DNA of 64,000 nucleotides. Origin: Alphaproteobacteria bacterium (lineage in GTDB: Bacteria > Pseudomonadota > Alphaproteobacteria > MPNO01 > UBA830). The stretch lies in the NCBI GenBank assembly GCA_964291215.2, contig OZ219791.1, forward strand, positions 320,001 to 384,000, given 5' to 3'. The translations under genes were made by a program, and so were the position numbers. The number at the start of each line of letters is the position of its first letter. Positions within the stretch are counted from its first letter, which is position 1. Below are positions 3,960 through 38,488 of the stretch, piece after piece. Under the pieces are notes generated by a model, which saw only the letters and a list, made by a program, of their open reading frames with translations, had not been told where the DNA came from and did not search any database.

Positions 3960-4095
3960 TGCGATTCCGAAAGCAGCTCGCAGCCCGGCAAGTTTCCGTT
4001 CGTGCGCCATAATAGCTCGAATCTTCGGGATATGGGCACCGGCGCGCCGCGGAGAGCCCGGGCCTTTCAACGAGCCATGATTAACTCGACGGTAT

Positions 4096-5270
4096 CTACT
4101 CACCCCTAGTTGGGTTCTGATTGGTCGTAGTGCTCGTTGATGATGTCTGCGGCTTTTCCGTCGAGGGCGATCTGGGTGGCGACGAGTGGGTTGTAGCCGA
4201 GTGCGGCCATGGAGGTGAGGTAGCTTGAGCCCCGGCACCATGCTTTTGCGTGGAGCGGAAGCATCCGGACACCTTGAGCTTTGCCATCCTGATCTTCTGT
4301 TCTCCGGCATTGTTGGTGAAGCTGACATCGGGGTCGTCTGTGAAGCGCAGGTTTTCGTGTTTCATGAGACGTTCGTGCAGGTTGTGCGCGTTTGCTATGC
4401 GTTTTCCTTTCGGCGGGATGTCGGGCAGTTCCTTGGCGCCCTGATGGTGCGGTAGCGCACGGCCTCGTTCAGGGTCCTGGATGCGCTCTTGTTGATCTTG
4501 TGGCAGACCTCGCGGAGCAGGCTCTTCATCAGTCGCGCGGTAGCCTCGACGACGAAGGTCAGTTCGCGCAGCAGGTGGCTGCCGCTGGTGGCTACACTGC
4601 CATGTACGAGGCCCAGGACGCCCTTGTAGCACGGGCCGATCTCTTGCTTGCGGTGCGGGAACTTGCACGTCCCGACGACATGGAGCCACTTGCTGTTGAT
4701 CCGAAATCGTCGACATCGGGCGTTGCAGGAGGTGCGCCACGGCGGCCTCCTCCCATGACGCATCGTGAAAGCATGGCCGAGGCCTCGGAGAGCTTGATGC
4801 CGGAGATCGCCTGCACGAGCGCGACGGCGCAGGGACAGCATTTGGGCGACCAGCAGGTTGATGACGAGGGCTTGGATGCCGTACTGCACGGGATGTTGTC
4901 GGGGAACCGGGCCTTGCACTTTGGGCATTCCTCGGCGTCGACGCGGCACGACCTCGAACACGATGTCGTGCGGCGCTCCCGATCGACGGGGTCGGCGCCG
5001 CAGGCGTCGCAGGCCGCGACCGTTTCCTCGACGATGGTCTTGCGCAGGTTGTCGCCCATCTGCCGGTTCGGCTTCGGGCCCTTGCTCCCGGCACGCTTCG
5101 CGCTCTCGTCCGTCTGTGACGGCGGCAGACCGGAGTTCCGGCTCGTGCGTGGTTTTCTCCAGAAGGACGACGATGAGGATGTCGAGGACGCGGATCACGG
5201 CCTCTTCCGACACCTTACCGGCCGCACGCAGCGCCGCAGCCTTGGCCGCTTCGAACTCCTCGCGCGCCGC
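4096..5270 (-). pseudogene. IS66 transposase, frameshifted
   Basis: IS66 motifs spread across several frames; boundaries approximate. Confidence 0.8.
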
Positions 5271-5279
5271 CCGTCGCCA

Positions 5280-5893
5280 TCACCCGGCCTCGCCGCGAGC
5301 ATCGCCCGGCGCTCACCCGGCGGCATCTTCCGGTACTCCGCCTTGCGCTTGATGCGCTGACGGTCCGTGCGGTTCCGCCCGGCATGGCTGGCCGAGTGCA
5401 TCCCCGCCCGGGCTCGAAGTTGAGCCACACCACCTCGGTGCGGACCCGGGGCGTCACCTGCACGACGATGCGGCGCCAGTCTCGCAGCAGGTCGTCGTAC
5501 AACGCCGAGGGGCAGCCCAAGACCATCGCCTGACACGGCAGCCCCTTGAGCAGTTCAAGGAGTTCGACATGGTCGGCTTCGGTGTAGTCGTGGCGGTATC
5601 GCCGCTTCGACCGGCGGGTCGCCTGCAGGGGTCGCTGCAGACCAGTTCCGTGCCCCGGAACGCAAGGCCGGCCAGGAACGCGTGGGCGCAGCCGTGGATC
5701 AGTTTCACCGGATAGTCGCACCCGAATCCGTCCAGCGCTCCCGGTCGATCCCGATAGAGCATGGCGCCGGCGCCTTGCGCTTCATCAGCGCGCCGCCTCC
5801 CGGATGCGTTTCCACATACAGATCATGCGGGGGCTGGAGCCCCGGAAGCAGCTGGCACAGCCCGCTCGTCGCTTTCGATCCAAAGTAGCCCAC
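5280..5893 (-). pseudogene. Dam-like (D12 class) DNA adenine methyltransferase inside IS66, frameshifted
   Basis: Stitched frames: VGYFGSKATSGLCQ..PPHDLYVETHPGGGALMKRK..IGID..ELVCSDP[PY lost]..YRHDYTEADHVELLELLKGLPCQAMVLG.PSALYDDLL..RTEVVWLNF. The YxGxK, E..GGG, DPPY-position and ExxWxN elements match Dam-type MTases. Confidence 0.75.
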
Positions 5894-6072
5894 TGGCGGT
5901 CCCCGTCGTTCTCGATGACCACCACTAAACGAATCAGCCTGCAGTGTCAAATCTCCACGAAAACCCGTTCGTTACTCTACCCCGACATCAAGCCGGAACC
6001 AGGGGGTGAGCAGTTACCAAAAATCAACGCATTCAATAGTGTCAGGTTGAAAGGCCCGGGCGACGGGCGCAG

Positions 6073-6672
6073 TCAGGGCAGGGCGGAGGCAGCGCCGTCC
6101 CGCAGTTCTTCCTCGATCGGCACTTGCAAGGCTTCGTGGACCGAGTTGTACATCTTCCAAAAACCGACGACGCAGGCGAGTTCGACGATCTGCGGCGGCG
6201 TCAGCTGCGCGGCCAGTTCGTCGAGCAGGGCTGTTGGAACCGCGCCGTGGTCGAGTGTAGCCGCCCGAGCATACTCTACCGCGATGCGCTCGACGGCGCT
6301 GTCCGGAACATGGGACGGATCGAGAAGCTCGGCGACTTGGGTTTCCGAGAAGTCCCAGCCCTCTCCTTCTCCGTCCGAAGCGCTGGTGAGGGTGTTGACG
6401 TTGTGCGCCACGCAGTAGGCGCTCTGGTTGAGATGCGAACAGATGGCGGCAATGCGCCGCTTGAGCGCCGGGTCGAGATGACCCGAGGGGTCACGCATGA
6501 CGGTGTTGTTGAGGCGGATCAGGGCCGAGAGGATTTCCGGACGGTGCATGTAGAGCCGGAGCGCGTTGGGCATGAAGCCCATGCGGCTCTCATACGCAGC
6601 AAGCGCGGCGCGAAGAGGTTCATCGAGGGCGCTGCCGTCAGCATAGGGGATGAAAGGGGTGTCTTCGCTCAT
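6073..6672 (-). CDS. Carboxymuconolactone decarboxylase / AhpD-like protein
   Basis: GFMPNALR..HRPE, LDPALKRRIAAICSHLNQSAYCVAH (SxxC in place of CxxC), QIVELACVVG. Confidence 0.8.
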   Translation of the reverse strand: MSEDTPFIPYADGSALDEPLRAALAAYESRMGFMPNALRLYMHRPEILSALIRLNNTVMRDPSGHLDPALKRRIAAICSHLNQSAYCVAHNVNTLTSASDGEGEGWDFSETQVAELLDPSHVPDSAVERIAVEYARAATLDHGAVPTALLDELAAQLTPPQIVELACVVGFWKMYNSVHEALQVPIEEELRDGAASALP

Positions 6673-6718
6673 CGGTTGTTCCGAAGCTGGTGGAGGGACG
6701 GGTCCGAGGCCGCCGGTG

Positions 6719-8131
6719 CTACAGGTAGTCCTCGAGCCTGACCTTTCCCCAGTTCAGGGGGAACGCCTGCCGGAAGTCGTCACCGCCGCGGTGAGGTTTG
6801 GCCGTTGCGTCGATGCCGATCTTGCCGACCAGGCGAAACGGTTCGTGGCCGGGCAGCGGTTGGGCGGACGGGTCGTAGGGAGAACCGCGCGTGCCGGGCA
6901 CGATGATGATGTCGCGCGCCGGGTCGACCCGTGTCGCCATGGCGTGATAGACGGCGCCGGGATCGTCGGGGTTGGTATCCGGGCCGACGGCAACCACCAT
7001 CTTGGTGTTCAGCCAGGGTGCACCCATGGTCTGCATCAGGGCGTCGTTGATCAGCCCCGGCCGCGGGTAGTCGAGCTGCAGGATGCAGCTCAGCGCGGCG
7101 CCCCAGGGCGGAAACCGCACGTCGCAGACATCGAGGCCGATCTCAGTCAGGCGGTTGTAGAGCACCGCTTCGTGGCACAGGCGGGGCAGGGTCTGATGGT
7201 CCGTGTCGGGAACTGTCTGGTGGTTCCTGTAGATGGGACGGCCTGCCCGCATCGTGACGGACCTGACCGCGATCTCGGGTATGTCCTGGTGCGCGGGAAG
7301 AAAATAGCCGCTCGGCGCGTTGACGCCGCCGGCACTGCGCGTACCGGAGAGGTCGACCACGGCCTCGACCACGATCTCCGCATGCGCCGGCACGAGAAGG
7401 TCGATGGTCTCGCACGGCGTCATCTCGATGTCCTGGTCCATCACGGTGCCGACCATCTCGAGTTCGCCCCAGAGGTCCATGTGCATGCCCGAGAAATTGG
7501 CCATGATCTCGTAGGCGGGATGGAGGCCGAAGACGATGGCGATCGGCATCTCCGCGAGGCCCGCATCGCGGTACTTGCGCATGATGATGTGGGTGTGCGG
7601 CGTTGCGAAGCTGATCACACCGTGGCTCGGGCCGAGCGGCGTGGTGCCGGCGTGGGACGAGTTGTAGAAGCCGGTCTCCGGATCCTTGACGATGTTCATC
7701 GCCGAAATGTAGCGGTTGCCTTCCTCCGCCGAATGGACGGGCACCGGAAGGTCGAGCCAGTTGGCGTCATCGCCGAGGCGGATGATCTCCTTTACGGGCC
7801 CGGTAGCGACCTCCACGAAGCCGCGGGGCGGCATGCGGAGGCGCTGTGCCAGCGTCGGCAGATAGTCTTCCTGGTCGACCCCGAGGGCGCGGCACTGCGA
7901 CCACCGGTGCTTGACCAGAATGTCGCAGATCCGGAAATCAGGATATTCCGTTATGTTCTCGAACAGCACCGGCCCCTCGGACTGCGCCGACAGCGCACCG
8001 ATATTGTCGATCGAGACCGGCCGCTCAACGACCGTCAGGATGTCGCTGTTGCTTTCGAGGTAACCGCGAAGGTCGCGATCGAGTGCGCGGTTGCTGCCGC
8101 AACCGGTCCGGGAAGCGCTGTCACCTGCCAT
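6719..8131 (-). CDS. UbiD-family (prFMN-type) protein with a divergent active site
   Basis: DLRGYL, GPVLFENI, GPVKE, KDPETGFYN, VPAHAEIVVE, KMVVAV..D, ATRVDPARD, KIGIDAT motifs. Confidence 0.9.
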   Translation of the reverse strand: MAGDSASRTGCGSNRALDRDLRGYLESNSDILTVVERPVSIDNIGALSAQSEGPVLFENITEYPDFRICDILVKHRWSQCRALGVDQEDYLPTLAQRLRMPPRGFVEVATGPVKEIIRLGDDANWLDLPVPVHSAEEGNRYISAMNIVKDPETGFYNSSHAGTTPLGPSHGVISFATPHTHIIMRKYRDAGLAEMPIAIVFGLHPAYEIMANFSGMHMDLWGELEMVGTVMDQDIEMTPCETIDLLVPAHAEIVVEAVVDLSGTRSAGGVNAPSGYFLPAHQDIPEIAVRSVTMRAGRPIYRNHQTVPDTDHQTLPRLCHEAVLYNRLTEIGLDVCDVRFPPWGAALSCILQLDYPRPGLINDALMQTMGAPWLNTKMVVAVGPDTNPDDPGAVYHAMATRVDPARDIIIVPGTRGSPYDPSAQPLPGHEPFRLVGKIGIDATAKPHRGGDDFRQAFPLNWGKVRLEDYL

Positions 8132-8136
8132 CGACG

Positions 8137-9177
8137 CTACGCGGCCGCCGCCATTCGCGCCTCGGCGCGGATCATGCGGTCGATTCTGCGGCGGAACAGG
8201 CCTGCGGATGCGTCGAGGTCAAGGCCGATCTTGCCGCGGCCCGAATGACGGTCCTCCCGCTGCTGGATGGCTTCGAGAATCTCCTTGTCCTCGGCGAAGG
8301 CGATGCGGAACTGTTCGCTGATGCGTTCGCCGACCCCGTCGTCGCCGATGTTGAAATCCCTGACATGGAGCCAGCGATCGATCGTCCGGTTTTCCGTGAT
8401 CGGCGTCATGAAGTGGCAGGAAAAGACCTGGACGCGCTGTTCGCCGCCCCCTTCGAACCCGCCGGTTCCCGCGGCCGCGCCGCCGAAATCGATGATAGAT
8501 GTCGACGGCGCATGCATCAGGTAGCGCTGCCACATGTCGACCCGGCTGTCGTCGTTGTTCGCCGCCCGGATGAATCCGGTGGGCGCCGAATCCGACGTCA
8601 GGCGCTCGGTCAGGACGCCCCACGAGGTTGCGCGATGCGTGACCGGCGCATTGATCTCGTCGGGGTTGCCGAGCGTCGACGGATGGACGTAGTTCACATG
8701 GGTGGGGTCGCAGAGATTGTCGCACAGCAGAAGGTAGTTGGCGGTCACGTCGAGCGCGTCACCGTGGGCGACAGCCCAGCCGTCCTGATGGTACTCGGGC
8801 AGGTCGTAGATCTCCGACTCGTCCGCCCGGTCGGCGTCTCCCATCCAGATCCAGACGAGACCCATTCGCTCGGCCACCGGATAGGCGCGCACCGCGCATT
8901 TGGTGGGAGGGGCGTCCTGGGTTGGGGCGCCCACGCAGCCGCCGCCGCCATCGAATATCAGACCGTGATAGCCGCACTGCAGGTTATTGCTGCGGATGCG
9001 CCCCTTCGAGAGCGGCAGGAAACGGTGTGGACAGAGGTCCTCGAGGGCTCGCGGCTGCCCGTCCGCGCCGCGCCAGAGCACGACCTCATCGCCAAGAATC
9101 GTCGCTGCGAGCGGCGAGGTCTCAAGGTCACGCGTGAAACTCGCTACGTACCACGCGTTGCGGACAAATGGCATCAT
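8137..9177 (-). CDS. Rieske non-heme iron oxygenase alpha subunit (VanA/TsaM-like)
   Basis: RNAWYVA; Rieske motif CPHR...CGYHG; mononuclear iron motif DNLCDPTHVNYVH; FAEDKEILEA. Confidence 0.92.
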   Translation of the reverse strand: MMPFVRNAWYVASFTRDLETSPLAATILGDEVVLWRGADGQPRALEDLCPHRFLPLSKGRIRSNNLQCGYHGLIFDGGGGCVGAPTQDAPPTKCAVRAYPVAERMGLVWIWMGDADRADESEIYDLPEYHQDGWAVAHGDALDVTANYLLLCDNLCDPTHVNYVHPSTLGNPDEINAPVTHRATSWGVLTERLTSDSAPTGFIRAANNDDSRVDMWQRYLMHAPSTSIIDFGGAAAGTGGFEGGGEQRVQVFSCHFMTPITENRTIDRWLHVRDFNIGDDGVGERISEQFRIAFAEDKEILEAIQQREDRHSGRGKIGLDLDASAGLFRRRIDRMIRAEARMAAAA

Positions 9178-9437
9178 GCACCTCCCGTCAGAGGTCGGGC
9201 GCCGGACGATCGGCCCGGGAGCCGGATATCATACTTGGAACATGGAGATTGTTGCGTGCGGCGTCAATGTCCATTCCGCTTTCGGGGCCGGCCCTAGCAA
9301 TCCATCGACATTGTATTGATGGTTTTTTGTGGGTAGTATTTCCGTGTCGGCATCCGTTGGAATCCGGACAGTGCCGATATCCACACGGGCAAGATGCCGA
9401 ACGGGCAGGCAGCAGCGGCCCCATGCGCAGGGGGTCC

Positions 9438-10671
9438 GGGTACTGTAACTTGATGTCTGGAAATTTGTCTGAGGTTTGCGCTTTGAGGCGTTTCACTGGG
9501 GGGGGGGGGGCTAGCCCCCCCCCCCCCCCCAGTGAAACGCGGCGCCATCGTGCTATCCCATGGAGTTGGAAAAATTCATGGAGGAAGCGAATGGACCTGC
9601 GACACACTACGACGATCGGGACTGTTTTGGAACATCTGATCGCAAACGGAGCAACGGATCTGGGGCGGGTCGCCAGCTCTTCGAGCTTGCGATGCAAATC
9701 GAGCGCGAGCAGTACTTGAAAGCGGGCCACCGGACACCGGAGCGACAGGGCCAACGGCTACAAGCGGATCGACACCCCCACTGTTACCGTTCAGGTGCCA
9801 AACGGTCACGGGGACGATCCGTCCCCAGTCGCTTGAACGCGGCCAGCGATCTTCTCGCGCCGTAGCCGAGATGTACATCAAGGGTGTTTCCACTCGGCAA
9901 GATGTAATGCGCGAGTTCGGGAGCCTGTCCTCTTCTCAGGTCAGCCGAGCCACCAAGTTGCTCGATGAAGAACTCGCCGCGCAACCGGCCCCTGATGAAA
10001 TACCTGGATGCGCGCTATGAAAAAGCCCGCCATGACGGCGTTGCGCGCGATGTTGCAGTGCTCTCGGCCATCGGAATAGGGGCTGCAGGCACGTTCTGGG
10101 GCTCTCTGTGGCGCTCTCCGAGGCCGAGGTCCATTGGAGAGCCTTCCTGGAAAGCTTGCAAACCCTGCATGGTACGACCTTCATCGTCTCGGATGCCGGG
10201 TTGAAAGCGGCACGACGCGCGGTGCAAGGCGCGGCGATGTGGCAGCGCTGCCAGTTCCACCTGGCGCAAAACGCCGTGCACCGAACAACGGCATCAGGAA
10301 ACGTATCGGAAAACAGCTCGGAGCCACGCCTCCTCACTCCAAACCGCCGAGGCTGAACCGGGCACCCTCGTGGCCAGCGACAAGCATCCAGGCTTCCTGG
10401 CTGGAAAACAATGCGGGGCTCGCTGTCTTCACCTTGCCCGATGCTCACCACAAGCGTATGCGAACCTCGAACGGCATCGAGCGACCGATCCGGCAAGAGC
10501 TCAAGCGGCGCACCTCCAAAGTCAGGGTCTTTCCGAACCTCGCCTCGTTGGAGCGCCTCTCAACCGCGGTCCTCATCGACGAAAAATGGGAAACCGAAAC
10601 CAAGATCAAATGGGAACAGCTCGATGACTGAGAGCTTCACGACAATTTCCAGACATCAGGTTGCGTAATCC
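9438..10671 (+). mobile_element. IS256-family element, degenerate, inserted in the IS630 leader
   Basis: Inverted repeats ..GTAACTTGATGTCTGGAAATT and (reverse) ..GCAACCTGATGTCTGGAAATT; flanks gggtccgg and aggtccgg (possible TSD). Fragments YLDARYEK, SEAEVHWRAFL, WQRCQFHLAQNA, RTSNGIER..ELKRRT.KVRVFPN. Confidence 0.88.
9488..9540. repeat. Long hairpin GCGTTTCACT-G13-CTAG-C16-AGTGAAACGC
   Basis: Perfect 10-bp outer arms plus complementary G and C homopolymers, read directly from the sequence. Confidence 0.9.
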
Positions 10672-11089
10672 AGGTCCGGACAACGGGCATGCCCGCAGGT
10701 CTTCGGCGCAATGACAGGAGCGGCGCATATGGCCAACTCTCGGGGCAGGAAGCTCTACCGCGTGACCCTTTCGGCGCAGGAGCGCCGGGATCTGAAGGCG
10801 ATCGGGCACCGGGGCCGCCTGGCGCCGGGCACAGGTCCTGATGCTGAGGGGCGCTTGTCGATGCCGACATTGCGCTGGGCACGGCGACGGTCGAGCGCTT
10901 GCGCAAGCGCTGCGGGGGCTGGAGGCCGCCCTCAGCCGCAAGGAGCAGGTGAACCGCCGGCCGAAACGGGGCGATGGAGGCGAAGCTGGTCGCCCTGCTC
11001 GTCCCCGCCCGAGGGCTGTGGACGCTGCTCGCCGGCCGTCTGGTGAAGATCGTCGAGCGCATTTCGGAAGAGACGGTCAGGAAGACGCT

Positions 11090-11098
11090 AAAAAAAAG
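11090..11098 (+). promoter_or_regulatory. A8G slippery site, probable -1 programmed frameshift of the IS630 transposase
   Basis: KTLKK is followed by a frame change to EIKPW, the usual orfA/orfB junction in IS630. Confidence 0.55.
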
Positions 11099-11133
11099 AG
11101 ATCAAGCCGTGGCTGAAGCAGTACTGGTGCATT

Positions 11134-12805
11134 ATCGCGGTAGGGAACCGGGTTTCCCCGGTCCCCCCGCACAGATCCGGACTTGCGCTGTTCGCATCCG
11201 GCTCCTCCCCTGACGACAAGGCGCTGGTTTGGCCACGGATGCTAGCCTTAGGCCAGTGAGCTTCGACGAGGGTGTCCATGTCCCTCCATTCGGTGCGATC
11301 CTTTTGGGAACGCCGCCGAAGGGCACGCAGCCGTTTGCATTGGTATATGAACCCCTGCAGGGACTCACTGCTTCCCGGAACGGCGTAGTAGCAGCCTTTG
11401 ATCACTCGCCACTTGGCCGTCTTGTGCCGATTGTCGTGCCACCGCTTGCGCAGCGCCTCCTTGATCCGCCGCAGGGTGCCCGTTTCTGGGCTGGTTTGCG
11501 GCCGACCCTGAACTTGCCCTTCCACGTCTGCTCGCAATAGTGCGTCATACCGAGGAAGTCGAACGTCTTGCCCCCGCTTCCGGCGGTTCGCTCTCGCAAA
11601 CCGACCGAACTCGATGATTGTCCGGGTGCAGTTCAAGTGAGCCAACCTCTCCCCGAGGTCCCAGCGCTTCGCATCGCCCTGATCCTGAAAGCCGCACACA
11701 AAATCATCCGCATAACGCACGATGATCGTGTCAGTCATCCGTTTGCGCCAATGGTTCTGGAACCAGTCACGTAGTGCAGGTAAACGTTCGCCAGGCAGGG
11801 GCTGCGCCCTGCGGCGAACCAGCACCGGTGTCGCTCCATGACGCCAGCGTCACTTGATGATCAGACCCCCCGATCCGTCTCTCGAGCATCGCGACCAGAT
11901 GGTCGCAATTGTCGAAGGGGCGTCAACGATCCAGTTGACCTTCCGCCGTTCCACCGTGACTGCATCGAGCGCGTTGTGCGTCCCGGCCGGAAACCATAAC
12001 TGAACCCGAGGAACTCCGTCTCGCGGTACCAGAATCGTGTCCGTCACTGCCCGCTGAAGAATCTTGTCCGAGGCAAGCGGTCGTTGCCCTCCATCCTCTT
12101 TGGGTATGTATACCCGACGGAGGCGCCCGCCCCTGTGCACACGGCAGGTCGACCAGTTCCACACCTTCCGCATACGCGTGCCACGTAACTCCGTCCACGC
12201 CCGCTGCCGCGTCCTTTCTCAAGGAGTGAAACGCCGCGTGCAGGACATCACGTGGTGGAGCAACGTCACAAGACGCTCTTCCGGATTCCTCTTCGCAACT
12301 TGTCGTATGCGTTCGGCCGCCTGTGACCCACTTTCCCGCTTCTGCGCGCGGCGCGGGCTTTGGCCAACCGCATTTCCCTTCCCTCCAGCAGCTCCGCAGG
12401 CTCCGAGGAGCCCTTGTTCGCCGCCTTCAACGGTACTATGGCCGAATCTGACTTCTCGTTCATCATCGGGTTACGGAATAGTTCCTTTCCTCTGCGACCC
12501 CTCTACGACAGTGGGGTAATTGGAAGACCTCCCAGGTCCCGGTAGACTGCTTCAGCGCGTGCCATGGTTCTCAGACCCCGCGGAGCCCCTGCTCGCCTCA
12601 CCAAACGCGGCCCGCAGGGTGTTGCCTTCGGCCTGGTGGACGATCTCAGCACTCCGGTTTCGCAGTATCTCGTGGCTCAATAGCCCGGCTTGCCGCTCCC
12701 CAACGCTTCGCCTCACGACGCATGGTTCACGGAGGAAGTGGTGGTTAGCCTCTCTTCCTGCCGGGACTCTCACCCGGCGACATCCTACCAGTTAGCCTGG
12801 CGCTC
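11134..12805 (-). mobile_element. Group II intron (RT without an obvious endonuclease domain), degenerate, antisense to IS630
   Basis: Domain V GAGCCGGATGCGAACAGCGCAAGTCCGGATC; domain VI and 3' end CCCTACCGCGAT; 5' end GAGCG. RT fragments AAAGVDGVTW, RRVYIPKEDGGQRPL, VRYADDFV, FDFLGMTH, LRRRSQK. Removing the intron restores IS630 WCI|PP. Confidence 0.9.
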
Positions 12806-13535
12806 CCACCGCACCGGAGCGCACAGTTCGTGGCGACGGACATGCTTGACATTTGTCAGCGGGACTTTACCGGGGACGAGGTGCTGAGACCAGCCGGCAG
12901 CAGGAAACCCGCATCCCCCGGTCAGCCGAAGGTGGTCGACCATGAATATGAACGAAACGGCCAACCTCTTCATGGCCTTTGCGCCCAACAAGAACTGGCG
13001 CACGGTGAAAGTCACTGACCGCCGCGGGACCGGGCGCACTTCATCCGGGAGCTTGCCGACGACCATTTCCCCGACAGGAAGATCGTGCTGGACAATCTGA
13101 ACACGCACAGTCGCTGTATGAAGCCTTCGAGCCCGGGGAGGCGGGTGCGAAAGCGGTTCGAGTTTCGCTACACGCCGAAGCACGGGAGCTGGCTCAACAT
13201 GGCCGAGATCGGTGCGCTGTCGCGGCAATGCCTTCGGCGACGCATTCCCGACAGAGACACCATGCGGCGGGAGACGGCGGCGTAGGTGGAACGGCGCAAT
13301 GCGGCCGATGTCACCGTCGACTGGCGTTTCACGACGAAGGATGCCCGGACAAAACTAAAGTCTCTATATCCATCAATACATTAATGCCGAACTACTAGGT
13401 GACGGTAACCTTTGGACATGAACAAGCTCCCTTCATCTTGTACAGAAACTCTCGCCGCTACCGCTCCGCAACATCATGCGTCTAAAAACACATGGTCACA
13501 GCCCATCATGTGTTGCACTTCACTATGGAACGGGG

Positions 13536-21084: not shown

Positions 21085-22989
21085 GTATTTCCTCCCGTAA
21101 ATCGGCGGTTGTCCGGACGGCTGAAGCGCCTGCCTCCGACGGACAGGCAGCGCGATGGAAACGCGGGCCGCTCTCGGCAACGTATCGTGCTGTCTCCGCC
21201 AATTCCTTAGATAGCAGACTTGGCGCGATTGGCAAGACTTCACCACCCAGGCGTTTCTCATGCTGCATTCAATTTTGCTGTCTTCTGCTGTCCGGAGGTT
21301 TCACAGCGTGCCGGGTTTTCTGGCTTCGGGGCCGTCCGCGGTCGTCGCCGACGGCGTTGCCGGCGCGTGGGCGGGATGTGGGCGGCGTCCGGGAATCGGC
21401 CGGACGCTATTGGCGCTCAGGGCTGCGACGGCTTCCCGGCGGTCGAGCCGCCGCCGTGTTTCGGCGAGGCTCTCGCGTCGGTTGGCAAAGATCACCGCGA
21501 GCGCGATGTTGTCGAGGCTGGCGCGGTTTGCGGGTCAGGCAGGCGTCCTTGCCGAAGACGCAGTCTCGGTGGTTCATGTTTTCCACGGCCCGCGGCCGCA
21601 GCAGTTCCTCTGGCGACGCGTGTTGCGCATCAAGCGAGGTGATGATGTATCGGTGCAGTCGTTACCGCTTGCTGCGCCGCTGGCGCTCTTTCTCAGCGGC
21701 TTGCGGTAGCATGCGGGCGATCTGCCGGGGTAGTTGATCAAGCCCTTGAGCGGCACGCGCTGCTCGAGGCGGGTCTTGCCTCCTTGAAGCGGCCGCTGGC
21801 TCCCAGTCGAAGGTTTCGGGCGCCCTTGACCGGGAAGACGTGGTCTGCGCCGCAGCGCCGGGTGATCAGCGTCGCCGGCGTCGTGCGGGTGATCACCTTG
21901 CCGCGGACATCGGTGCGCTCGAGGAGGTGGCCGCCAGCTCGCCGTCGTCGAAGTTCAACGGCGCGAAGGGTGCGCCAGAGGCGTGAGGGCCACGGTCTCG
22001 TGGTGGCGGTTGGCGCCGCGGATGCGCTTGCCGTCGGCGGCAAGCGCCCGGGCGAGCCCGCGGCCGAGCACATCCTCGATCGCCTCGGAGTCGACCGACC
22101 GGACGACCCGGTGGAGGGTCGTCCCGGAGGGCGGCTCGCGCAGCCCCGTCCTCGGGTTCTGCCGATGGCCCCGAGCTCGTCCCGGGACAGCGACCGCGCA
22201 GCTGCGAGGCAGCCTTTCATGTTCGCAAGCTCGGCGAGAACGTGAGCACACCGTGTGCTTCCTGCGCGGCGGAAGTCCTCGATCGCCGCCAGCTCGTCGT
22301 GCAGCGAACGCATCACTTCGGAACCCCGGGGAGCGAGGAGGCAGGCCACCGCAGCGCCTGCGACAGCAGCCGTCGCGCCGCACAACGAAAATCTCCTTGC
22401 CATGGGGGTCGGTGCAGCGCCCGTTGGCGCGGGCAAATCCCCTGGCACGCCAGCCCGCCGCCTTGTGCCCGCAAAACGCGCCGGATCGCAGAACGTCTCC
22501 GCCACCTAGTGGCCGCAGGCCCGGTCGTCGGCCAGCCGCGGCGTCGCAAGAAAGAAGGAGGCGAGGTTCGGAAACGTTCCCGGCGCCGCAAGCAGTCGCG
22601 TGTTGTCAGATCAAGCCACTCCTGCTCCTACTTCCAGCCACCGGTCGCGGCACTTGAAGGCCCCGGCCAGACCACTGCCCCCTGAAGGACGCAATATGGC
22701 GCAGCCTCGCCAGACAGCGAAACCCGAGATAGTCGTCCATCAACGCAGCGGACGCTCCTCAGGCTTCGCGAACCTCGGACAGACCCTTCCGGAGCTGCGA
22801 CGTGAATCGGACAGGACGCGATGTACCTATGAACCGACATCCCCGCACCATGACAACTCCAGTGCAGGAAAGCCAGCGAAAACTGTAAAAAAATCGTAAC
22901 TGCTCACCCCCTGGTTCCGGCTTGATGTCGGGGTAGGCAACGAACGGGTTTTCGTGGAGATCTGACACTGCAGATCGATTCTGTTAGTG

Positions 22990-23255
22990 TGAACTTCCTG
23001 GGCTGCCTCCGCCAAATCCTGATTCTGGTTGAATGTCACGGCCACATCGAGAGCGCCGTTGCGCGCGATTCGCACCATTTCGAGACCAATCCGAAGGTCT
23101 GTTTCTTTCTCGCGCTGTGCCGGCACATCATGCATCGTACCGTCCGGAAGCGGGACCCGCTCGGAGCGCGGTTTCCGGGATGTCACGAGAATCCCGACGC
23201 GGCTCATCGCGGTCAGGCACCGCGCCCGGCACGCCGGATCTTTCCTGGCGTCGGA
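22990..23255 (-). pseudogene. NYN/LabA-DUF88 (PIN-like) protein internal fragment
   Basis: QREKETDLRIGLEMVRIARNGALDVAVTFNQNQDLAEAAQEV resembles the EKxxD...SxDxD core of NYN domains; no start or stop of its own. Confidence 0.6.
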
Positions 23256-24024
23256 GTATCTCCTCACCCCTCCGCAGAGGCGGGTTTGGCGTTGTGCATC
23301 TTGATCATGTCGGCGGCGAGTGCGATCCGGATGGCGACGAGCGGGCTGTAGCCGAGTGCGGCCATGGAGGTGAGATAGCTTGAGCTTCGGCACCAGGCCT
23401 CGGCGTGGAGCCGGGTTCGGAAGCAACCGGAGACCTTGACCTTTGCCATCCAGATTTTCTGCTCGCCGGGATTGTTGGTGAAGCTGACGTCCGGGTCGCT
23501 CATGAAGCGCAGGACGGACTCTTCATGTCTTGCGAGACGCTCCCGGAGGTTGTGCGCGTTCGCAATCCGTCCGCGTTTTCCTTTCTGTCGGGGCGGGATT
23601 TCAGGCAGTTCCTTCGCCCCCGGGTCAGGATGGTCCGGTAGCGCTTGATGACGCTGTGGCGGTCGGCCTCGTTCAGGGTTTTGGATGTGCTCTTGTTAAC
23701 CCTGTGGCAGGCAGCAGTTTCTTCATCACGCGTGCCCGGCGGTAGCCACTGGCGCCGACGATGAAGGTCAGTTCCCTGAGCAGGCGGGACCCGCACAGCT
23801 GGTGGGTGCATTGATCGCAGGCCAGCCATGCGGCCCAGCAGTCGTGGACCAGCGTGCCGATGTAGCTGATGCCGATCTCCTCGATCGCCTGCCTGCCGCG
23901 CCTGCGATGCAGGAACTTGCACGTCCCGTCGGTGACGACATGGAGCGATCGGGTCCTGCCGTCGACCCGGAAGCCGGTTTCGTCGACATGCAGCGCCGGG
24001 CGTTCCAGCAGTTCGGCGATGCGG

Positions 24025-24411
24025 CCGCCAGTCCCGCAGCAGGTCGTCGTACAACGCCGAGGGGCGGCCCGAGACCATTACCTGACACGGCAGACCCAGT
24101 TCAAGGAGTTCGACATGGTCGGCTTCGGTGTAGTCGGGGCGGTACCGGCGGGTCGCCTGCAGGGGTTGCTGCAGACCAGTTCCGTGCCCCGGAACGCAAA
24201 GCGCGTGGGCGCAGCCGTGGATCAGTTTCACCGGATAGTCGCACCCGAACCCGTCCGGTGCTCCCGGTCGATCCCGATAGAGCGCCGGCGCCTTGCGCTT
24301 CATCAGCGCGCCGCCTCCCGGATGCGTTTCCACATACAGATCATGCGGGGGCTGGAGCCCCGGAAACAGCTGGCACAGCCCGCTCGTCGCCTTCGATCCA
24401 AAGTAGCCCAC
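24025..24411 (-). pseudogene. Dam-like methyltransferase remnant in IS66 copy 2
   Basis: VGYFGSKATSGLCQ..VETHPGGG..DYTEADHVELLEL..PSALYDDLLRDW, then joined by deletion to the middle of the transposase. Confidence 0.72.
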
Positions 24412-24863
24412 TGGCGGTCCCCGTCGTTCTCGATGACCACCACTGAACGAATCGGCCTGCAATGTCAAATCTCCACGAAAACCCGTTCATTACTCTACCC
24501 CGACATCAAGCCGGAACCAGGGGGTAAGCAGTTACAAAAAATCTCCTCGCACCAACCCGCGTCCCCGCAATACCCAGATTCTGCCCTGAAAAATCAAACA
24601 GAATTTAGCGTGAAAATTTCCTGCCGCAGGCCTCTCGCCGCACGCCTCGATGCACCGGTCCGTCAACAACCCCGCTGTTCCGGCAGCCAGCCGCGCAAGA
24701 AGCGCAGCTGCGCCCCCGGGCCGGAAACCCGCGGGCGATTCGCCAAAACGGTTCGAATTGCCCCATTATCCCGTCCATCAATCACGTGATCCGACCGTCG
24801 CGTCCGACAGTTTCGGGGCGGATTGGTGCGCATCGTTTTCCAACACCGCTGGCGTCCCGCAAC

Positions 24864-26864
24864 ATGGCAGATCTTTTCGCAACCGCCGCACCGAAGAGAC
24901 GGAATTATTCCGCCAAGGACATTGAGGTCCTCGAGGGGCTCGAGCCGGTCCGCAAGCGGCCCGGCATGTATGTCGGCGGCACCGACAGCCACGCCTTGCA
25001 CCATCTCGCCGCCGAGATCCTCGACAACGCGATGGACGAGGCGGTTTCGGGACACGCCAGCTGGATCGAGTTCGAACTCGAGGCGGACGGACATATCAGG
25101 ATCCGAGACAACGGACGCGGCATTCCGGTCGAACCGCACCCAAAATACAAGAACAAGTCAGCGCTCGAAGTGGTCCTGACGACCCTGCACTCTGGCGGCA
25201 AGTTCGGCAACGACGCCTACGGCATTGCCGGGGGACTGCACGGGGTCGGCCTTTCGGTCGTCAACGCGCTCTCGGCAGAACTCGTAGCCGAAGTCGCCTA
25301 TGACCGGACGCTCTGGAGCCAGCGCTATGTGAGGGGCAAGGCCAGCGGCCCGTTGCGGCCGGCCGGCAAAGCGACCAATCGCCGCGGCACGCAGATCCGG
25401 TTCCGACCCGACCCCCAGATCTTCGGCGAGAAGGCCGCTTTCCGGCCCGCGGCCCTGTTCGCGATGGCGAAGGCCAAGGCATATCTGTTCAAGGGCGTGG
25501 AAATCCGCTGGTCGTGCGCGCCCGGGCTGATCGCAGCTGGCGACGAGATTCCGGAGCGGCTGACGCTTCATTTTCCCGGCGGCCTCTCCGACTATCTTGC
25601 CGCGATGCTCGGTGACCGCGGAACCGTCGCGGGGACTCGTTTCGTCGGCGAAAGCAAGCTGTCCGGCGACGGCCGGGCCGAATGGGCGCTTGCCTGGCCC
25701 GAGGATCGTGATGCCGCGCTCTCCTCCTACTGCAACACGATACCGACGCCGGAAGGCGGAACCCATGAGGCGGGCCTTCGCGCCGCTCTTGCGCGCGGCC
25801 TCAGAACCTACGGAGAGATGGCCGGGAACAAGCGAGCATCGATCATCACCGGAGACGATGCCGCGGCGTCATCGACGGGCGTGCTCTCGATCTTCATCCG
25901 CGACCCCGAGTTCCAGGGCCAGACCAAGGAGAAGCTGTCGTCACCAAGCGTCGCCAAACAGGTGGAGACCGCCATCCGCGACCATTTCGAGCACTTTCTC
26001 GCCGGTAACGCACGGGCCGCGGACCAGATTCTCGAGCATGTCGTCGAAAGGGCCGAGGAAAGGCTGCAGCGGCGCAAGGACCGGGAGCTTGCCCGCAAGA
26101 CCCCGACCCGAAAGGTCCGGCTGCCGGGCAAGCTTGCCGACTGCGCCTCGGGAATCGCCGCGGGAACCGAACTGTTTCTGGTCGAGGGCGATTCCGCGGG
26201 CGGGTCCGCCAAGCAGGCAAGGGACCGCAAGACGCAGGCGGTTCTGCCGCTCAGGGGAAAGATTCTCAACGTCGCCAGCGCCTCTGCCGACAAGATGCGT
26301 GCGAACCAGGAACTCACGGATCTCGTCCAGGCGCTCGGCTGCGGCTACGGCAAGACCCTGGCCATCAAGAATCTGCGCTACGAACGCGTGATCATCATGA
26401 CCGATGCCGATGTCGACGGCGCCCATATCGCCTCCCTCCTGATGACGTTCTTCTTCAGGGAGATGCCGGACCTGGTCCGGGAGGGCTGCCTCTATCTTGC
26501 CATGCCGCCGCTCTATCGCATTTCCCAAGGCGGCCGCACCACCTTTGCGCGGGACGACGCGCACCGTGACGAATTGCTGGCCTCCGCCTTCAGCGGCCGC
26601 GGAAAGGTCGAGATCAGCCGCTTCAAGGGGCTCGGCGAAATGCCGCCAGCGCAACTGAAGGAAACGACCATGAGCCCCGAGACGCGAACGCTCCTCAAGG
26701 TGGTCGTCCCCGACGGATACGCTGCGCCGCAACCGCCGCGCGACGGCAACTGTCCGCCGTCGGCGACCGCGGATCTCGTCGAACGCCTCATGGGCCGCAA
26801 GCCCGAAGCGCGCCTGCAGTTCATCCAGCAGAATGCGGAAACGGTCGACTACGTGGACGTCTGA
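24864..26864 (+). CDS. parE: DNA topoisomerase IV subunit B
   Basis: IEVLEGLEPVRKRPGMY, EILDNAMDEA, LHSGGKF, VEGDSAGG, PLRGKILN, MTDADVDG, RFKGLGEM; about 666 aa without the GyrB insertion. Confidence 0.9.
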   Translation: MADLFATAAPKRRNYSAKDIEVLEGLEPVRKRPGMYVGGTDSHALHHLAAEILDNAMDEAVSGHASWIEFELEADGHIRIRDNGRGIPVEPHPKYKNKSALEVVLTTLHSGGKFGNDAYGIAGGLHGVGLSVVNALSAELVAEVAYDRTLWSQRYVRGKASGPLRPAGKATNRRGTQIRFRPDPQIFGEKAAFRPAALFAMAKAKAYLFKGVEIRWSCAPGLIAAGDEIPERLTLHFPGGLSDYLAAMLGDRGTVAGTRFVGESKLSGDGRAEWALAWPEDRDAALSSYCNTIPTPEGGTHEAGLRAALARGLRTYGEMAGNKRASIITGDDAAASSTGVLSIFIRDPEFQGQTKEKLSSPSVAKQVETAIRDHFEHFLAGNARAADQILEHVVERAEERLQRRKDRELARKTPTRKVRLPGKLADCASGIAAGTELFLVEGDSAGGSAKQARDRKTQAVLPLRGKILNVASASADKMRANQELTDLVQALGCGYGKTLAIKNLRYERVIIMTDADVDGAHIASLLMTFFFREMPDLVREGCLYLAMPPLYRISQGGRTTFARDDAHRDELLASAFSGRGKVEISRFKGLGEMPPAQLKETTMSPETRTLLKVVVPDGYAAPQPPRDGNCPPSATADLVERLMGRKPEARLQFIQQNAETVDYVDV

Positions 26865-30676: not shown

Positions 30677-30678
30677 CG

Positions 30679-31677: not shown

Positions 31678-31707
31678 TCCTGCCCCGGAGATCGCGGAGG
31701 CGGAACG

Positions 31708-33384: not shown

Positions 33385-33926
33385 CCCGCGCGCGAGACGG
33401 CAACAACCCCGAAACTGGCCAGATGGTCGGTGACGAACTGGGTGTCGAGCAGCATGAAACCGGCCTTGCAGAGCCGCGCAACGAGATGGACGAGAGCAAT
33501 CTTGCTAGCGTCGCGCGCACGGCTGAACATGCTTTCGCCGAAGAACGCGGCATTGAGCGCCACGCCGTAGAGCCCTCCCGCGAGCTCCCGCCCGTGCCAG
33601 ACCTCGACACTGTGGGCGCGCCCCATGCGGTTGAGTTCGACATAGAGTGAGATGATCTCGTCATTGATCCACGAATCGTCGCTGTATCCGCGGGGTTCGG
33701 CGCAGGCCCGTATCACGGATTCGAAGGCCGTGTCGCAACGGATCTCGTAGGGGCACGCGCGAACGGTCCGCCGCAGACGCCGCGAGACATGAAACGAGTC
33801 GAGCGGCAGGATGCCGCGAACCTCGGGGTCGACCCAGTAGAGGGTCGGATCGTCCCTCTGTTCGGCCATGGGGAACAGGCCAGCCGCGTAGGCGCGCAGA
33901 ACGACTTCGGGCGTCAGAACGGACAT
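33276..33926 (-). CDS. aat: Leucyl/phenylalanyl-tRNA--protein transferase
   Basis: [40 protein letters not shown] motifs. Confidence 0.95.
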
Positions 33927-33956
33927 CGCTGCCGTGCCGGCCGGTCGCCGGCCGCG

Positions 33957-35309: not shown

Positions 35310-35338
35310 CTCGACGATTCGCGACCGCGCAGCCGGCC

Positions 35339-35785
35339 CTATTCGATGATCATGAGATCTTCGCCGAACTCGACCGGATCAGTGTCGCCGACGATTATGC
35401 GGGTCACCGTTCCGGCCCGTGGCGCGCGCACCGGATTGAACGTCTTCATCGCCTCGATCAGCGCAACCGTCTGCTGCTCGGTCACCGCGTCGCCGATCCT
35501 GACGAACGGATCGGCGCCGGGCTGCGGCGCCAGGTAGACGGTGCCCACCATCGGCGCCGTGACCGGAACTCCGGCAGCCTGAGGAGGATCGGGCGGCGGC
35601 AACGCCTCAGGCGGCGCAGCGACGACTGGCTGATCGGCAACCTCCCGGACGGGCCCGGCGGCACCACGCACAACGCGCACCCGCCGTCCGCCCGCCTCAT
35701 ACTCGATCTCGGTAAGGCCGGTCTCGCTCAGCAATCCGGCCAGCTTGCGCACGAGCGCGTCGTCAATGTCGAACTTGCCGGCCAT
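35339..35785 (-). CDS. accB: Biotin carboxyl carrier protein
   Basis: APMVGT and the EAMK biotinylation motif; adjacent to accC. Confidence 0.95.
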   Translation of the reverse strand: MAGKFDIDDALVRKLAGLLSETGLTEIEYEAGGRRVRVVRGAAGPVREVADQPVVAAPPEALPPPDPPQAAGVPVTAPMVGTVYLAPQPGADPFVRIGDAVTEQQTVALIEAMKTFNPVRAPRAGTVTRIIVGDTDPVEFGEDLMIIE

Positions 35786-36243
35786 CAACCTTCCTCCCCA
35801 AGCCTGATCAGCTGAACCATCGCGTCGATCGCCAGAAGATAGCCCTGCGAACCGAACCCGGAAATCACGCCGACCGCCACCGCGGAGACATGGGAATGGC
35901 TGCGGAACGAGTCGCGGCGATAGATGTTCGAGAGGTGCACTTCGACCACGGGAAGCGCGGTGAGCGCAAGCGCATCCATGATGGCCACGGACGTGTGGGT
36001 GTAGGCTGCCGGGTTGATGATGATGCCCGTCGCCGAATCCCGGGCATGCTGGATCCAGTCGACAAGCTCGGCTTCGCTGTTGCTCTGCCGGAAATCGACC
36101 TCGACCTCTGCAGCGCGTGCGCGGGCAAGGCAAGCCTTCCGAATATCGTCGAGCGTCTGATGCCCGTAGATTTCGGGTTCGCGAACTCCAAGCATGTTGA
36201 GGTTCGGACCGTTCAGCACAAGAATTCGAGGTGATGGCGTCAC
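35785..36243 (-). CDS. aroQ: Type II 3-dehydroquinate dehydratase
   Basis: [32 protein letters not shown] motifs. Confidence 0.95.
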
Positions 36244-36447
36244 ATCGTCTCCCGTGGTCCCGGCAGGGAACGCGGCCGGGCATATGCCGGAGACGACAAG
36301 CCTTATAAACCGGTTCCGGTTGCGACGGACCGTCACCACGACAGGAGAAGGCAGCGGGATTTCCCCCTCCGGCCGCAGGGAATGCGTGCGGAGTATACCG
36401 CCCGCGAACCGAATCTAGCAAGAATCGGGGCCCCGCCCGCACGACAA

Positions 36448-38488
36448 TCTCACGCCAGGTTTGTTGGAAGGTTTGGTGCCGTTTTTTTCCGGATGATTCG
36501 CATTTTCGCTGGCTTTTTGTGAAGCGGTGTAGTATCCGTTGTCGTGATGGAAGAGGCAGCGGATTTTTTTGAGACGACTCTGGAGGGTTTTGCGCTCCGG
36601 GATGTGGTTGTGCGCCTTGCGCGGCCTGATGAGGTATGTCGCTGGAATCGTGTCGTTGACCGTCATCACTATCTTGGTTTCAAGCAGTTTGCCGGTCGAG
36701 GTCTGCGCTACGTGTTCACTTGGCGCGGGCGGTGGATTGGCGCTGCGGGCTGGCAGACGGGCGCCTTCAGCTGTGCGCCGCGGGACCGTTGGATTGGCTG
36801 GCGCCGCGAGGAACAGTTTGAGCGGTTGCACCTGATCGGAAACAACACGAGGTTTGTTGTTCTTGGTGGTCGCCGAGTGTTTCCGAGCCTTGCCTCGTTT
36901 GCGTTGTCGCGGATGGTGCGGCGTCTCAGCGGCGACTGGGAGGCTGCGTACGGCAATCCGTTGCTTGTTGCGGAGTCGTTTGTCTCGCCGACGAAGTTCA
37001 GCGGCGCCATGTACAAGGCGGCGAGCTGGGAGTGCGTTGGCAGAAGCAAGGGTTATGCGCGCGCCAGCGGGCGCTATACCGACCGGCACGGGGAGGCGAA
37101 GGATCTTTACGTGTTTCCGCTGCGTCGTGACGCCTGTCGTCGGCTGCGGGATCGTTCGCCGCTTCCTGCGGCGTGGGAGTTGCGGGCGACGCTGAGCGGC
37201 CGGTCGGCGCGGGAGTTGCGCTCGATTTATCAGCATTTTGCGGCGCTTTCCGACTTCCGGCGCGCGCAGGGGCGCAAGCACCCCGTCGCCTCGGTACTGT
37301 GCGTGATTTTGCTGGCGCGGCTTGCAAACCGGCACGGCGCGGTTGCGGCGGCGCGCTACGCGAAAGCGATGACGCAGAAGGAGCTGGCGCAGATCGGCGC
37401 GTGGAAGAACAGGGACACCGGCAGGTATGAGCCGGTCTCCAAATCGACCGTGCACCGGGTGCTGCAGAACACCGACCCGGGATGGATCGAGGATGCTCTG
37501 CAGCCTTGGGTGCAGCCGCGCCTGCAGGTCGGCAACGCGATCGCGGTCGACGGCAAGCGCGGCCGCACCGGCGAGGATCATTACGAGACGGTCTCGCTGA
37601 TCGAGCACGGGACCGATATGCCGGTCTCGATCCTCAACTGTCACGACGGGGAGATCGCTGCCGTCCACGCCGCGCTCGAGACGGCGCCGGTTGCCGGCCG
37701 TCTGCTCACCCTCGACGCGCTCCACACCACCCGCGAGACCGCGCGGCTGATCGTCGAGACTCATCGCGCGGACTGGATGATGACGGTCAAGGGCAACGCG
37801 CCCGAAACCTTCAAGACCTTCGAGAGCATCAACTGGAAGACCGTGAGCACGGGGCGCTATAGCGAAAAGCCCGCGCATGGCCGCCAGCGCACCATCGAGG
37901 TCTTCACCCCGCTGGCGAAGATGATCAACTATCCCCACGTCAAGCAGATCTTCCGCGTCACCCGGCACATCGAATTCAGGAAATCCGGAAAACGGACAAC
38001 CGAGCAGGCCTACGGCATGACCTCGGTCGAGGCCGATCGCGCCTCGCCGCAACAGTTGCTCGGATGGAATCGCGGACACCGGGGGGTCGAGAGCCATCAT
38101 CATGTCCGCGACGCCACCTTCCACGAAGACGACTCCATGCTCCGGACCGGCAACGCGCCCGCAAATAACGCGATCACCCTCGCAATCGCCGTCATCATCC
38201 ACAACAAGCTGCGCAAACCCTTCAACAGCTTCGTCGACACCACCATGGCGACAAGCGCAAGCAGGTCCTGCACGCAATCATGAGATCCGGCTGACCGCGC
38301 CTCTCTCCCCGACAGAAACCGCAAGCTTTCGAGCCCGGCAACCAAGGCCTCTCGCTCGCCCCGGATACGCCGACCAATCGCGCCCCGCGCTGCAACAGCG
38401 CGTCAGCAAATCTCAAAATCGCAGCTTCGAACGCGTCGACCCGCGCCGCGATCAGGACTCCGATCACATCACATCAACAAGCATGAGA
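36448..38488 (+). mobile_element. DUF4338-ISAs1 fusion element
   Basis: Short inverted ends TCTCACGC...GCATGAGA bracket the fusion ORF; ends tentative. Confidence 0.6.
36544..38283 (+). CDS. DUF4338 (DruA/Mom-like) domain fused to an ISAs1-family DDE transposase
   Basis: N-half: HHYLG, LRYV, RDRWIGW, NNTRF, ESFV, GAMYKAASWECVG.SKG. C-half: DFRRAQGRKH, AVDGK, TLDALH, VKGN, HVRDATFHED. Confidence 0.85.
   Translation: MMEEAADFFETTLEGFALRDVVVRLARPDEVCRWNRVVDRHHYLGFKQFAGRGLRYVFTWRGRWIGAAGWQTGAFSCAPRDRWIGWRREEQFERLHLIGNNTRFVVLGGRRVFPSLASFALSRMVRRLSGDWEAAYGNPLLVAESFVSPTKFSGAMYKAASWECVGRSKGYARASGRYTDRHGEAKDLYVFPLRRDACRRLRDRSPLPAAWELRATLSGRSARELRSIYQHFAALSDFRRAQGRKHPVASVLCVILLARLANRHGAVAAARYAKAMTQKELAQIGAWKNRDTGRYEPVSKSTVHRVLQNTDPGWIEDALQPWVQPRLQVGNAIAVDGKRGRTGEDHYETVSLIEHGTDMPVSILNCHDGEIAAVHAALETAPVAGRLLTLDALHTTRETARLIVETHRADWMMTVKGNAPETFKTFESINWKTVSTGRYSEKPAHGRQRTIEVFTPLAKMINYPHVKQIFRVTRHIEFRKSGKRTTEQAYGMTSVEADRASPQQLLGWNRGHRGVESHHHVRDATFHEDDSMLRTGNAPANNAITLAIAVIIHNKLRKPFNSFVDTTMATSASRSCTQS

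Follow-up and report, generated by a model that had tools for sequence, protein, structure and literature searches.

Unrelated accessory modules in two unrelated insertion sequences: a probable Mom-type domain in ISAs1 and a likely Upf31-type repressor in IS66

Overview of the elements

The window analysed here is a 64,000-nucleotide stretch of alphaproteobacterial DNA (G000:C2:320001-384000). It belongs to a genome of 6.15 Mb in two contigs (G000, 99% complete) and contains insertion sequences (ISs) of two unrelated families, IS66 and ISAs1. We believe, with a probability of roughly 55%, that the accessory modules of these ISs are unrelated and that their jobs probably differ: a Mom-type DNA-modifying domain (DUF4338) at the N-terminus of the ISAs1 transposase, and an Upf31-type repressor encoded by a cargo gene of IS66. 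The original prediction had taken both modules for putative DNA-modifying enzymes that might converge on anti-restriction or self-marking. DNA modification is likely for the ISAs1 domain: here both the fold and the residues speak for the proposed likeness to Mom, the function being predicted. A convergent anti-restriction theme is unlikely, because an Upf31-type repressor cassette accounts better for the Dam-like gene of IS66.

The IS load of the genome is very large. The left ends counted numbered 235 for IS66 family A and 53 and 47 for the two ISAs1 subfamilies. Given these counts, the five elements of the window (three of IS66 family A, two of ISAs1) are far beyond chance, and IS ends were confirmed for all five. 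The predicted three IS66 copies with a Dam-like gene and two ISAs1 copies with DUF4338 are thus true of elements and false of intact enzymes, because the Dam-like genes and one ISAs1 element (D) are broken: an intact Dam-like gene is present in none of the three IS66 elements, and the ISAs1 elements belong to separate subfamilies and are not copies of each other. Carriage of passenger genes by ISs is a known kind of arrangement. Surveys of Mom domain architectures by Iyer (2009 and 2013), with their supplements, may reportedly already mention transposase fusions. A literature search that left these two surveys and ISfinder outside its scope found neither module described inside an IS.

Mom-like domain of the ISAs1 transposases

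The ISAs1 features of the window are as follows.

36440..38496, plus strand: ISAs1 element G (subfamily G), with imperfect 16-17 bp terminal repeats and a 9-bp target duplication
36544..38283, plus strand: fusion open reading frame (ORF) of 579 aa, with DruA/DUF4338 at aa 31-171, DDE_Tnp_1_assoc at 230-323 and DDE_Tnp_1 at 367-550
36634..37056, plus strand: predicted Mom-like GNAT domain of element G, with the His-Tyr, Arg, Ser and Tyr counterparts kept and Ser at the Mom Asp149 position
21248..24623, minus strand: ISAs1 element D (subfamily D), a DUF4338-transposase fusion with 49 deletions against the intact copy L002 and an IS66 composite in its 5' region

The motifs HYLG and G.MYKAASW..VG, from which likeness to Mom had been proposed, were found within 36544-38283. 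DUF4338 forms the N-terminal part of the transposase itself, in frame with it, and is no separate upstream gene, which contradicts the idea of a modifying enzyme placed 5' of the transposase. The rule also fails elsewhere in G000, where a stand-alone DUF4338 gene lies 3' of an IS66 transposase. For the ISAs1 transposase, NF033564 scored above its cut-off, and PF13808 and PF01609 were present. The intact subfamily D copy L002 is a single frame of 645 aa, and an intact fusion of this subfamily lies at G000:C2:460763-462700; no target duplication was seen at element D. The DruA domains of elements G and D are identical at 102 of 176 aligned residues. Self-BLAST did not pair the two elements because they belong to different subfamilies.

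A model of the subfamily D domain (98 sequences; predicted local distance difference test score, pLDDT, 86.7) has a GNAT fold. In VIA-align searches Mom ranked first, both against 48,161 PDB representatives (Z 14.3, root-mean-square deviation (rmsd) 3.9, 170 residues aligned; next 12.1) and against 997 structures (Z 14.3; next 12.4). No other Foldseek row among those listed exceeded Mom in query TM-score (0.53) or identity (18%). Conservation was counted over 122 representatives of 50% clusters, and the counterparts of the Mom active site were 87-100% conserved: His in 117/118, Tyr in 103/118, Arg in 120/122, Ser in 115/122, Asp in 113/122 and the second Tyr in 122/122. The modelling that had been proposed as a check of the Mom likeness therefore bore it out.

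According to the accessible text of Silva et al. (PMC13219725), Mom moves glycine from Gly-tRNA onto adenine N6, and it requires H58, Y59, R111, S124, D149, R151, Y159 and a helix-turn-helix (HTH) insertion. The part of PMC7261163 that was available describes the key Arg as Mom-specific among GNATs and Mom as conferring restriction resistance. DUF4338 has already been called a GNAT in the accessible text of Rakesh et al. (PMC10853773). Our data suggest that the ISAs1 domain is a Mom-type acyltransferase, likely modifying adenines in DNA near the site of transposase action. The domain would transfer an acyl group, possibly glycyl from a charged tRNA, to adenine N6, and fusion to a scarce, cis-preferring transposase would keep acylation local and non-toxic; we lean slightly towards this scheme. 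The mark, in turn, might either shield DNA from restriction or tune transposition.

Several results weigh against a Mom-type function. Mom was only 9th by Foldseek E-value. The sequence link is weak (hhalign probability 6.9%, E 0.005), and no match emerged when the first DUF4338 alignment was compared, as a profile, with the single Mom sequence. The key Arg was left off Mom R111 by hhalign, and the pairing was made by motif. The HTH insertion of Mom (about 175-209) has no counterpart in DUF4338, only a 25-column profile gap and a short hairpin in the model. The R151 counterpart is offset by one position and is Arg in 81/122. In subfamily G, 32/32 readable sequences of 49 matches have Ser or Leu in place of the Asp149 equivalent, and the subfamily reached about 50 copies despite this loss. 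A DUF4338-DndF fusion is proposed to target proteins in the accessible text of PMC10853773. Global hhalign of DUF4338 against Mom likewise found no match, and the DUF4338 hidden Markov model (HMM) scored Mom weakly, at 7.6 bits against 4.6 for the best shuffle (500 shuffles, 342 scored). Pfam Mom (PF25680) matched neither the window proteins nor that of L002; its matches to 2 of 73 homologues scanned, one above cut-off, count in favour of the link. Because of the weak profile match, the motif-based Arg, the offset R151, the missing HTH and the Asp loss of subfamily G, we say that the domain probably works like Mom, not that it is Mom.

The same observations bear on an alternative in which DUF4338 acylates a protein, such as the transposase or one of host defence, or an RNA such as tRNA, or binds nucleic acid non-catalytically, and so regulates transposition. 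Generic GNATs reach Z 11-12, only about 2 units under Mom, and the missing HTH, the Asp149 loss of subfamily G and the DndF fusion fit this alternative as well. Against it stand the conservation of a Mom-specific residue set over more than 100 clusters at 50% identity and the viral structural neighbours of the model, which include Mom and endonuclease fusions; Mom-endonuclease fusions are described in the available text of Iyer 2021 (PMC7824862). We regard this alternative as tentative and prefer a Mom-type enzyme acting on DNA.

The domain is common on transposases. At E <= 0.001, DUF4338 matched 6,418 representatives at 50% identity. The ISAs1-associated domain was present in 63 of 73 homologues scanned, these being the longer ones among 150 listed of the 6,418. 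Matches among clusters of comparable length numbered 737, and a transposase Pfam domain occurred in 115 of the 120 clusters listed. G000 has 96 DUF4338-like loci, with an ISAs1 transposase match next in 58. All 21 paired subfamily G elements retain the DNA of the domain. The subfamily D census (7 elements paired, DruA DNA above cut-off in 3) is uninformative owing to nested insertions and deletions.

Other families of the genome have the domain too. At L214 (G000:C2:1643624-1646002), a 793-aa frame of the IS4/Tn5 type joins DruA to Tn5 DNA-binding, DDE and Tn5 dimer domains, and several diverged relatives of it occur in G000. At L213 (G000:C2:525850-529030), a stand-alone DUF4338 gene of 326 aa lies downstream of an IS66 transposase inside the terminal repeats. 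Genes of this type encode about 130 extra N-terminal residues and occur in several near-identical copies; three were examined, and one of these has an 8-bp duplication. DUF4338 was thus taken up by at least three IS families in G000 (ISAs1, Tn5-like and IS66).

Many DUF4338-ISAs1 homologues of 350-390 aa (P0012, P0014 and P0015 included) end after the associated domain. A programmed frameshift may account for such proteins; both intact copies examined here are single-frame.

Upf31-like gene of the IS66 elements

The IS66 transposases scored above the NF033517 cut-off, and the ends are of the GTAA type. We take the group name for single-transposase IS66 to be ISBst12-like. The IS66 features of the window are as follows.

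4092..6017, minus strand: IS66 copy A (family A), with imperfect terminal repeats, a target duplication no longer present and an IS66 Pfam fragment match
5922..5950, minus strand: putative cassette promoter of copy A, with an intact -35 box (TTGACA) and operator arms and -10 box degenerate against the family consensus
5280..5893, minus strand: Upf31-like Dam-fold gene of copy A, frameshifted, with deletions of 7, 7, 6 and 15 bp and the DPPY codons gone
4108..5280, minus strand: IS66 transposase of copy A, with many 5-7 bp deletions and an approximate 3' boundary
22888..24543, no strand assigned: composite insertion of IS66 copy F, about 260 bp and an inverted IS66 left-end stub, with one flanking 8-bp duplication
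22896..22989, plus strand: stub of an IS66 family A left end, in the opposite orientation to copy F
23256..24535, minus strand: IS66 copy F, with a left end as in family A joined to the 3' half of a different IS66 transposase
61868..63373, minus strand: IS66 copy H (family A), the dominant form in the genome, with the cargo gene deleted and an 8-bp target duplication
63121..63249, minus strand: Upf31-like remnant of copy H, a 42-codon in-frame stub without DPPY whose stop still overlaps the transposase ATG

The cargo protein and Upf31 of plasmid pBP136 are identical at 95 of 219 residues (43%, E 8e-63) over the whole length. The pBP136 upf31 gene was taken as the 675-bp gene at 25336-26010, assigned by length, position and Y180/F185/W198. 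The homology includes the C-terminal extension, and the cargo protein has aromatic residues at the Y180, F185 and W198 positions. In the accessible text of PMC11997246, Upf31 gave no GATC methylation (DpnI) and no signal from SMRT (single-molecule real-time) sequencing. It represses its own promoter about 50-fold, and repression needs the C-terminal region and Y180, F185 and W198, according to the same text.

The model of the cargo protein consists of a Dam catalytic core and two C-terminal helices. It aligned with E. coli Dam at Z 15.1 and rmsd 2.5 over 141 residues. The Dam target-recognition domain (about 100 residues) has no counterpart in it, because model residues 10-167 span chain residues 15-270 with only 141 aligned. 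The protein fell under the curated Dam cut-offs of TIGR00571 (24.8 vs 114.85 bits) and PF02086 (14.1 vs 22 bits).

The gene lies inside the IS66 terminal repeats directly before the transposase, with stop/start overlap in families A and B. Upstream of it is a conserved cassette promoter, TTGACA-n-CATAG-N10-CTATG-CT. Its statistics come from metagenome loci (the best 80 of 410). The -35 box was found in 75/80 loci, and the palindrome matched at 9 or more of its 10 bases in 65/77. Spacer positions 8-12 were 87-99% conserved and positions 13-22 were 33-57% conserved; a sigma-70 spacer does not need a fixed sequence. The first operator arm lies in the spacer between the -35 and -10 boxes, and the palindrome overlaps the spacer and the -10 box. 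The upf31 promoter has the same spacing and layout, with two further upstream repeats. By analogy with Upf31, we believe that the IS66 gene is a Upf31 homologue and likely a repressor of the promoter driving itself and the transposase, not a genome methylase. A dimer would bind the CATAG-N10-CTATG palindrome and block the spacer and -10 box, and transposase expression would be throttled. On this analogy we hold the throttling fairly probable.

Some results weigh against a repressor without catalysis. Of 91 cargo homologues, 90 retain DPPY (and 89 retain HLGGG, motif I), which is consistent with real catalysis, and a rare long methylation site could escape SMRT motif calling. In addition, the operator is degenerate in every class of family A, so repression may not hold for the window copies. 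Because DPPY is so widely kept, methylation confined to the operator retains a minor share of probability. Dam controls IS10 and IS50, and the Upf31-like protein could be a private IS version of such control: a true methyltransferase of one long site, its own operator, with hemimethylation after replication opening the promoter. The Dam catalytic fold agrees with this, as does the 95-99% conservation of the adenines in both operator arms, one of these adenines serving as the A at -11 within the -10 box. Upf31, however, keeps DPPY yet showed no methylation, and its repression depends on the C-terminal helices, dependence on catalysis not being shown in the accessible text (PMC11997246). We therefore find such a methyl switch unlikely, and favour repression by binding.

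Copies, loss and spread of the IS66 cargo gene

In copy A the stop of the Upf31-like gene overlaps the transposase ATG (TGATG). Its four deletions were scored against the intact genomic copy L212. A contig of a related strain (sponge metagenome run X4) skips the copy A stretch. A contig of run X3 joins both ends of copy A (6022/4092) with one base between, as a circle junction or a tandem copy would. The transposase part of copy F has 71% DNA identity to copy A. Its gene keeps the 5' two thirds (24411-24014), is cut after about codon 148 and has six deletions, with DPPY deleted; the joint falls in the middle of the different IS66 transposase. Two inverted IS66 left ends formed the small composite, captured about 260 bp and inserted into the 5' region of element D. 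Copy H lies outside the span of the original prediction (4092..38488).

Of the 235 family-A left ends, 193 could be classified and 42 were unclassed. Three nested deletion joints were found in 117, 30 and 27 of them, and the gene continuation was kept in 19; the cargo gene is thus lost from 174/193. At the dominant joint, an in-frame leader still overlaps the transposase start in 102/111 copies. A joint between two 11-bp repeats was considered as the dominant deletion and rejected, since the 117 copies of the dominant form carry an additional deletion. The repeat joint itself occurs in 27 copies, with a form derived from it in another 30, and was found in contigs of three runs of one study, one run possibly being this genome's source. 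The gene is intact in 2 copies of family A. Family B, which lies outside the window, has 10 intact cargo ORFs (99-100% identity), exact 8-bp duplications in 10/11 copies tested and a perfect operator in 11/11 copies. Duplications of 8 bp were found in 81 of 131 IS66 copies checked.

Gene loss and operator decay in family A fit the loss of a brake; a trans-acting protein or a size advantage fits too. The intact copies (2 of family A, 10 of family B) could act in trans, and deletion in cis therefore discriminates poorly between the readings.

The cargo family has 3,761 homologue clusters. In the GTDB sample (the best 80 of 257 cargo loci, non-independent because they come from about 17 metagenome-assembled genomes, MAGs), an IS66 transposase lay downstream in 78/80 and an exact duplication was found in 52/80. 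In the best 80 of 410 metagenome loci, the next gene was IS66 in 64, IS701 in 2, IS4-like in 1 and other in 7, and 6 were too short. At L179:910-1209, a Upf31-like gene is next to a fragment bearing the ETFVD...GTCYR motif of DUF4338, so both modules can adjoin.

Both modules might be neutral hitchhikers in IS-rich genomes. In G000 the majority of copies of each module are broken or have been deleted, and canonical ISAs1 and IS66 transpose without them. We nevertheless regard neutrality as very improbable, given the homologue clusters of both modules (3,761 and 737), the fixed architecture in 64/80 metagenome loci and 63/73 representatives, the conserved operator and active-site residues, and the uptake of DUF4338, within a single genome, by three or more IS families.

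Restriction setting

The genome is rich in type I-like methyltransferases, in line with the restriction-rich setting that had been supposed. G000 encodes 9 full-length N6_Mtase genes (type I-like), the highest number in 41 genomes, besides 3 N6_N4 and 1 C5 methyltransferases. DUF4338 occurs in 5 of the 41 genomes and the IS66 cargo in 6 (two of these by weak partial matches), mostly the same genomes. At least one N6_Mtase gene was present in 5/5 DUF4338 carriers vs 8/36 non-carriers, a comparison confounded by kinship, genome size and assembly quality.

These counts would suit a reading in which both modules are active DNA-modifying enzymes that, amid a restriction-rich community, shield the element or the vehicle carrying it against restriction. 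The resistance that Mom confers points the same way, and so does the spread of the cargo. Its family was found on 150 plasmids, 122 of them conjugative, and on prophages. Its closest relatives occur in MAGs with the titles Alphaproteobacteria, Dehalococcoidia and Binatia, and protein identity of the IS66 element between phyla reaches 92-93%. DNA that moves inside one cell, however, already carries host methylation. The IS66 cargo also has no target-recognition domain and is deleted from most copies of family A, the family with the greatest expansion, and for Upf31 the accessible text reports neither GATC nor SMRT-detectable methylation (PMC11997246). We consider shared shielding improbable and keep to two modules with different jobs.

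Small deletions and other features of the window

Nearly all deletions in the IS repeats (e.g. 4092-6017 and 21248-22895) measure 5-7 bp: 87 IS66 copies hold about 670 deletions, of which 613 have this size, and both ISAs1 families have the same pattern. They recur at fixed sites in mosaic form (121 patterns in 121 copies). Of 98 recurrent sites, 56 show microhomology of at least 2 bases, where about 20 would be expected. Deleted and undeleted alleles were both found in read contigs. One run's contigs carry missing letters, and a wholly artefactual origin in assembly was considered; it was rejected, as exact deleted-allele contigs exist. The genome search found mutS and did not find Ku. Loops of 5 or more bases escape mismatch repair, and one idea is that such loops, with gene conversion, are the source of the deletions.

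Other features were also noted. An IS256-like element lies at 9300-10640 (Transposase_mut match, about 100 genome matches). It is followed at 10640-13450 by a repeat of about 60 copies without a Pfam match, whose frames we take to resemble a group II intron maturase. By eye, 6073-9177 presumably holds a cluster of carboxymuconolactone-decarboxylase-like, UbiD-like and Rieske oxygenase-like ORFs, and 355-3970, beside it, what we assume to be trehalose-pathway-like genes.

Wider meaning

Mom chemistry, the transfer of glycine from charged tRNA onto adenine, has to our knowledge been shown only for phage Mu-type enzymes. A domain resembling Mom, present in thousands of transposases, offers new candidate enzymes and suggests a function for the uncharacterised DruA domain of Druantia. 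The IS66 cassette implies that many mobile-element genes annotated as DNA adenine methylase may be repressors. It also provides a natural experiment, in which a family of about 12 copies, its gene intact and its operator perfect, can be set against one with a decayed operator and a mostly deleted gene (235 left ends). More speculatively, ISs of several families (ISAs1, IS4/Tn5 and IS66) might form a widespread class that encodes its own tRNA-charged DNA hypermodification, which would bring Mom chemistry beyond phages into the chromosomes of cells, with Druantia DruA a Mom relative, and a parallel Upf31-type methyl-switch might control IS66 and IS701, its loss leading to runaway (about 170 cargo-less copies); we hold this broad picture doubtful.

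Comparison with known systems

Mom (PDB 8BV8, PF25680) and DUF4338 have in common a predicted GNAT fold, counterparts of H58, Y59, R111, S124, D149, Y159 and W48, and carriage by a transposing element. DUF4338 differs in lying on an IS transposase instead of being a late phage gene, in its low identity (about 14-18%), in the absent HTH insertion, in an extra RDxWIGW...RL insert and in R151 being out of register. Druantia type I DruA (PF14236) is the same Pfam domain, and the DUF4338 fusions score above its gathering threshold. The model is matched only in part (about 50-230 of 297), and PADLOC DruA gave E 0.006 or no match. In context the two also differ: at the loci inspected, DUF4338 is part of a transposase or its neighbour and does not sit in a Druantia operon, although no search for DruB-E covered the whole genome.

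The IS66 cargo resembles Dam/D12-class N6-adenine methyltransferases in catalytic fold, motif order and DPPY. It differs from Dam in the absent target-recognition domain, and its nearest tested relative, Upf31, is without GATC methylation. With Upf31 (IncP-1beta pBP136) it shares the C-terminal helical extension, DPPY and the promoter layout of -35 box and CAT.G-N10-C..... It differs in its place inside IS66 repeats ahead of the transposase, in its arms (CATAG/CTATG vs CATCG/CG...) and in that a KorB partner is not expected. The window IS66 elements have the ends and 8-bp duplications of the single-transposase IS66 family and differ in the Upf31-like gene before the transposase. Canonical ISAs1 transposases have about 370-380 aa, and the fused ISAs1 transposases carry about 230 extra N-terminal residues (579-645 aa).

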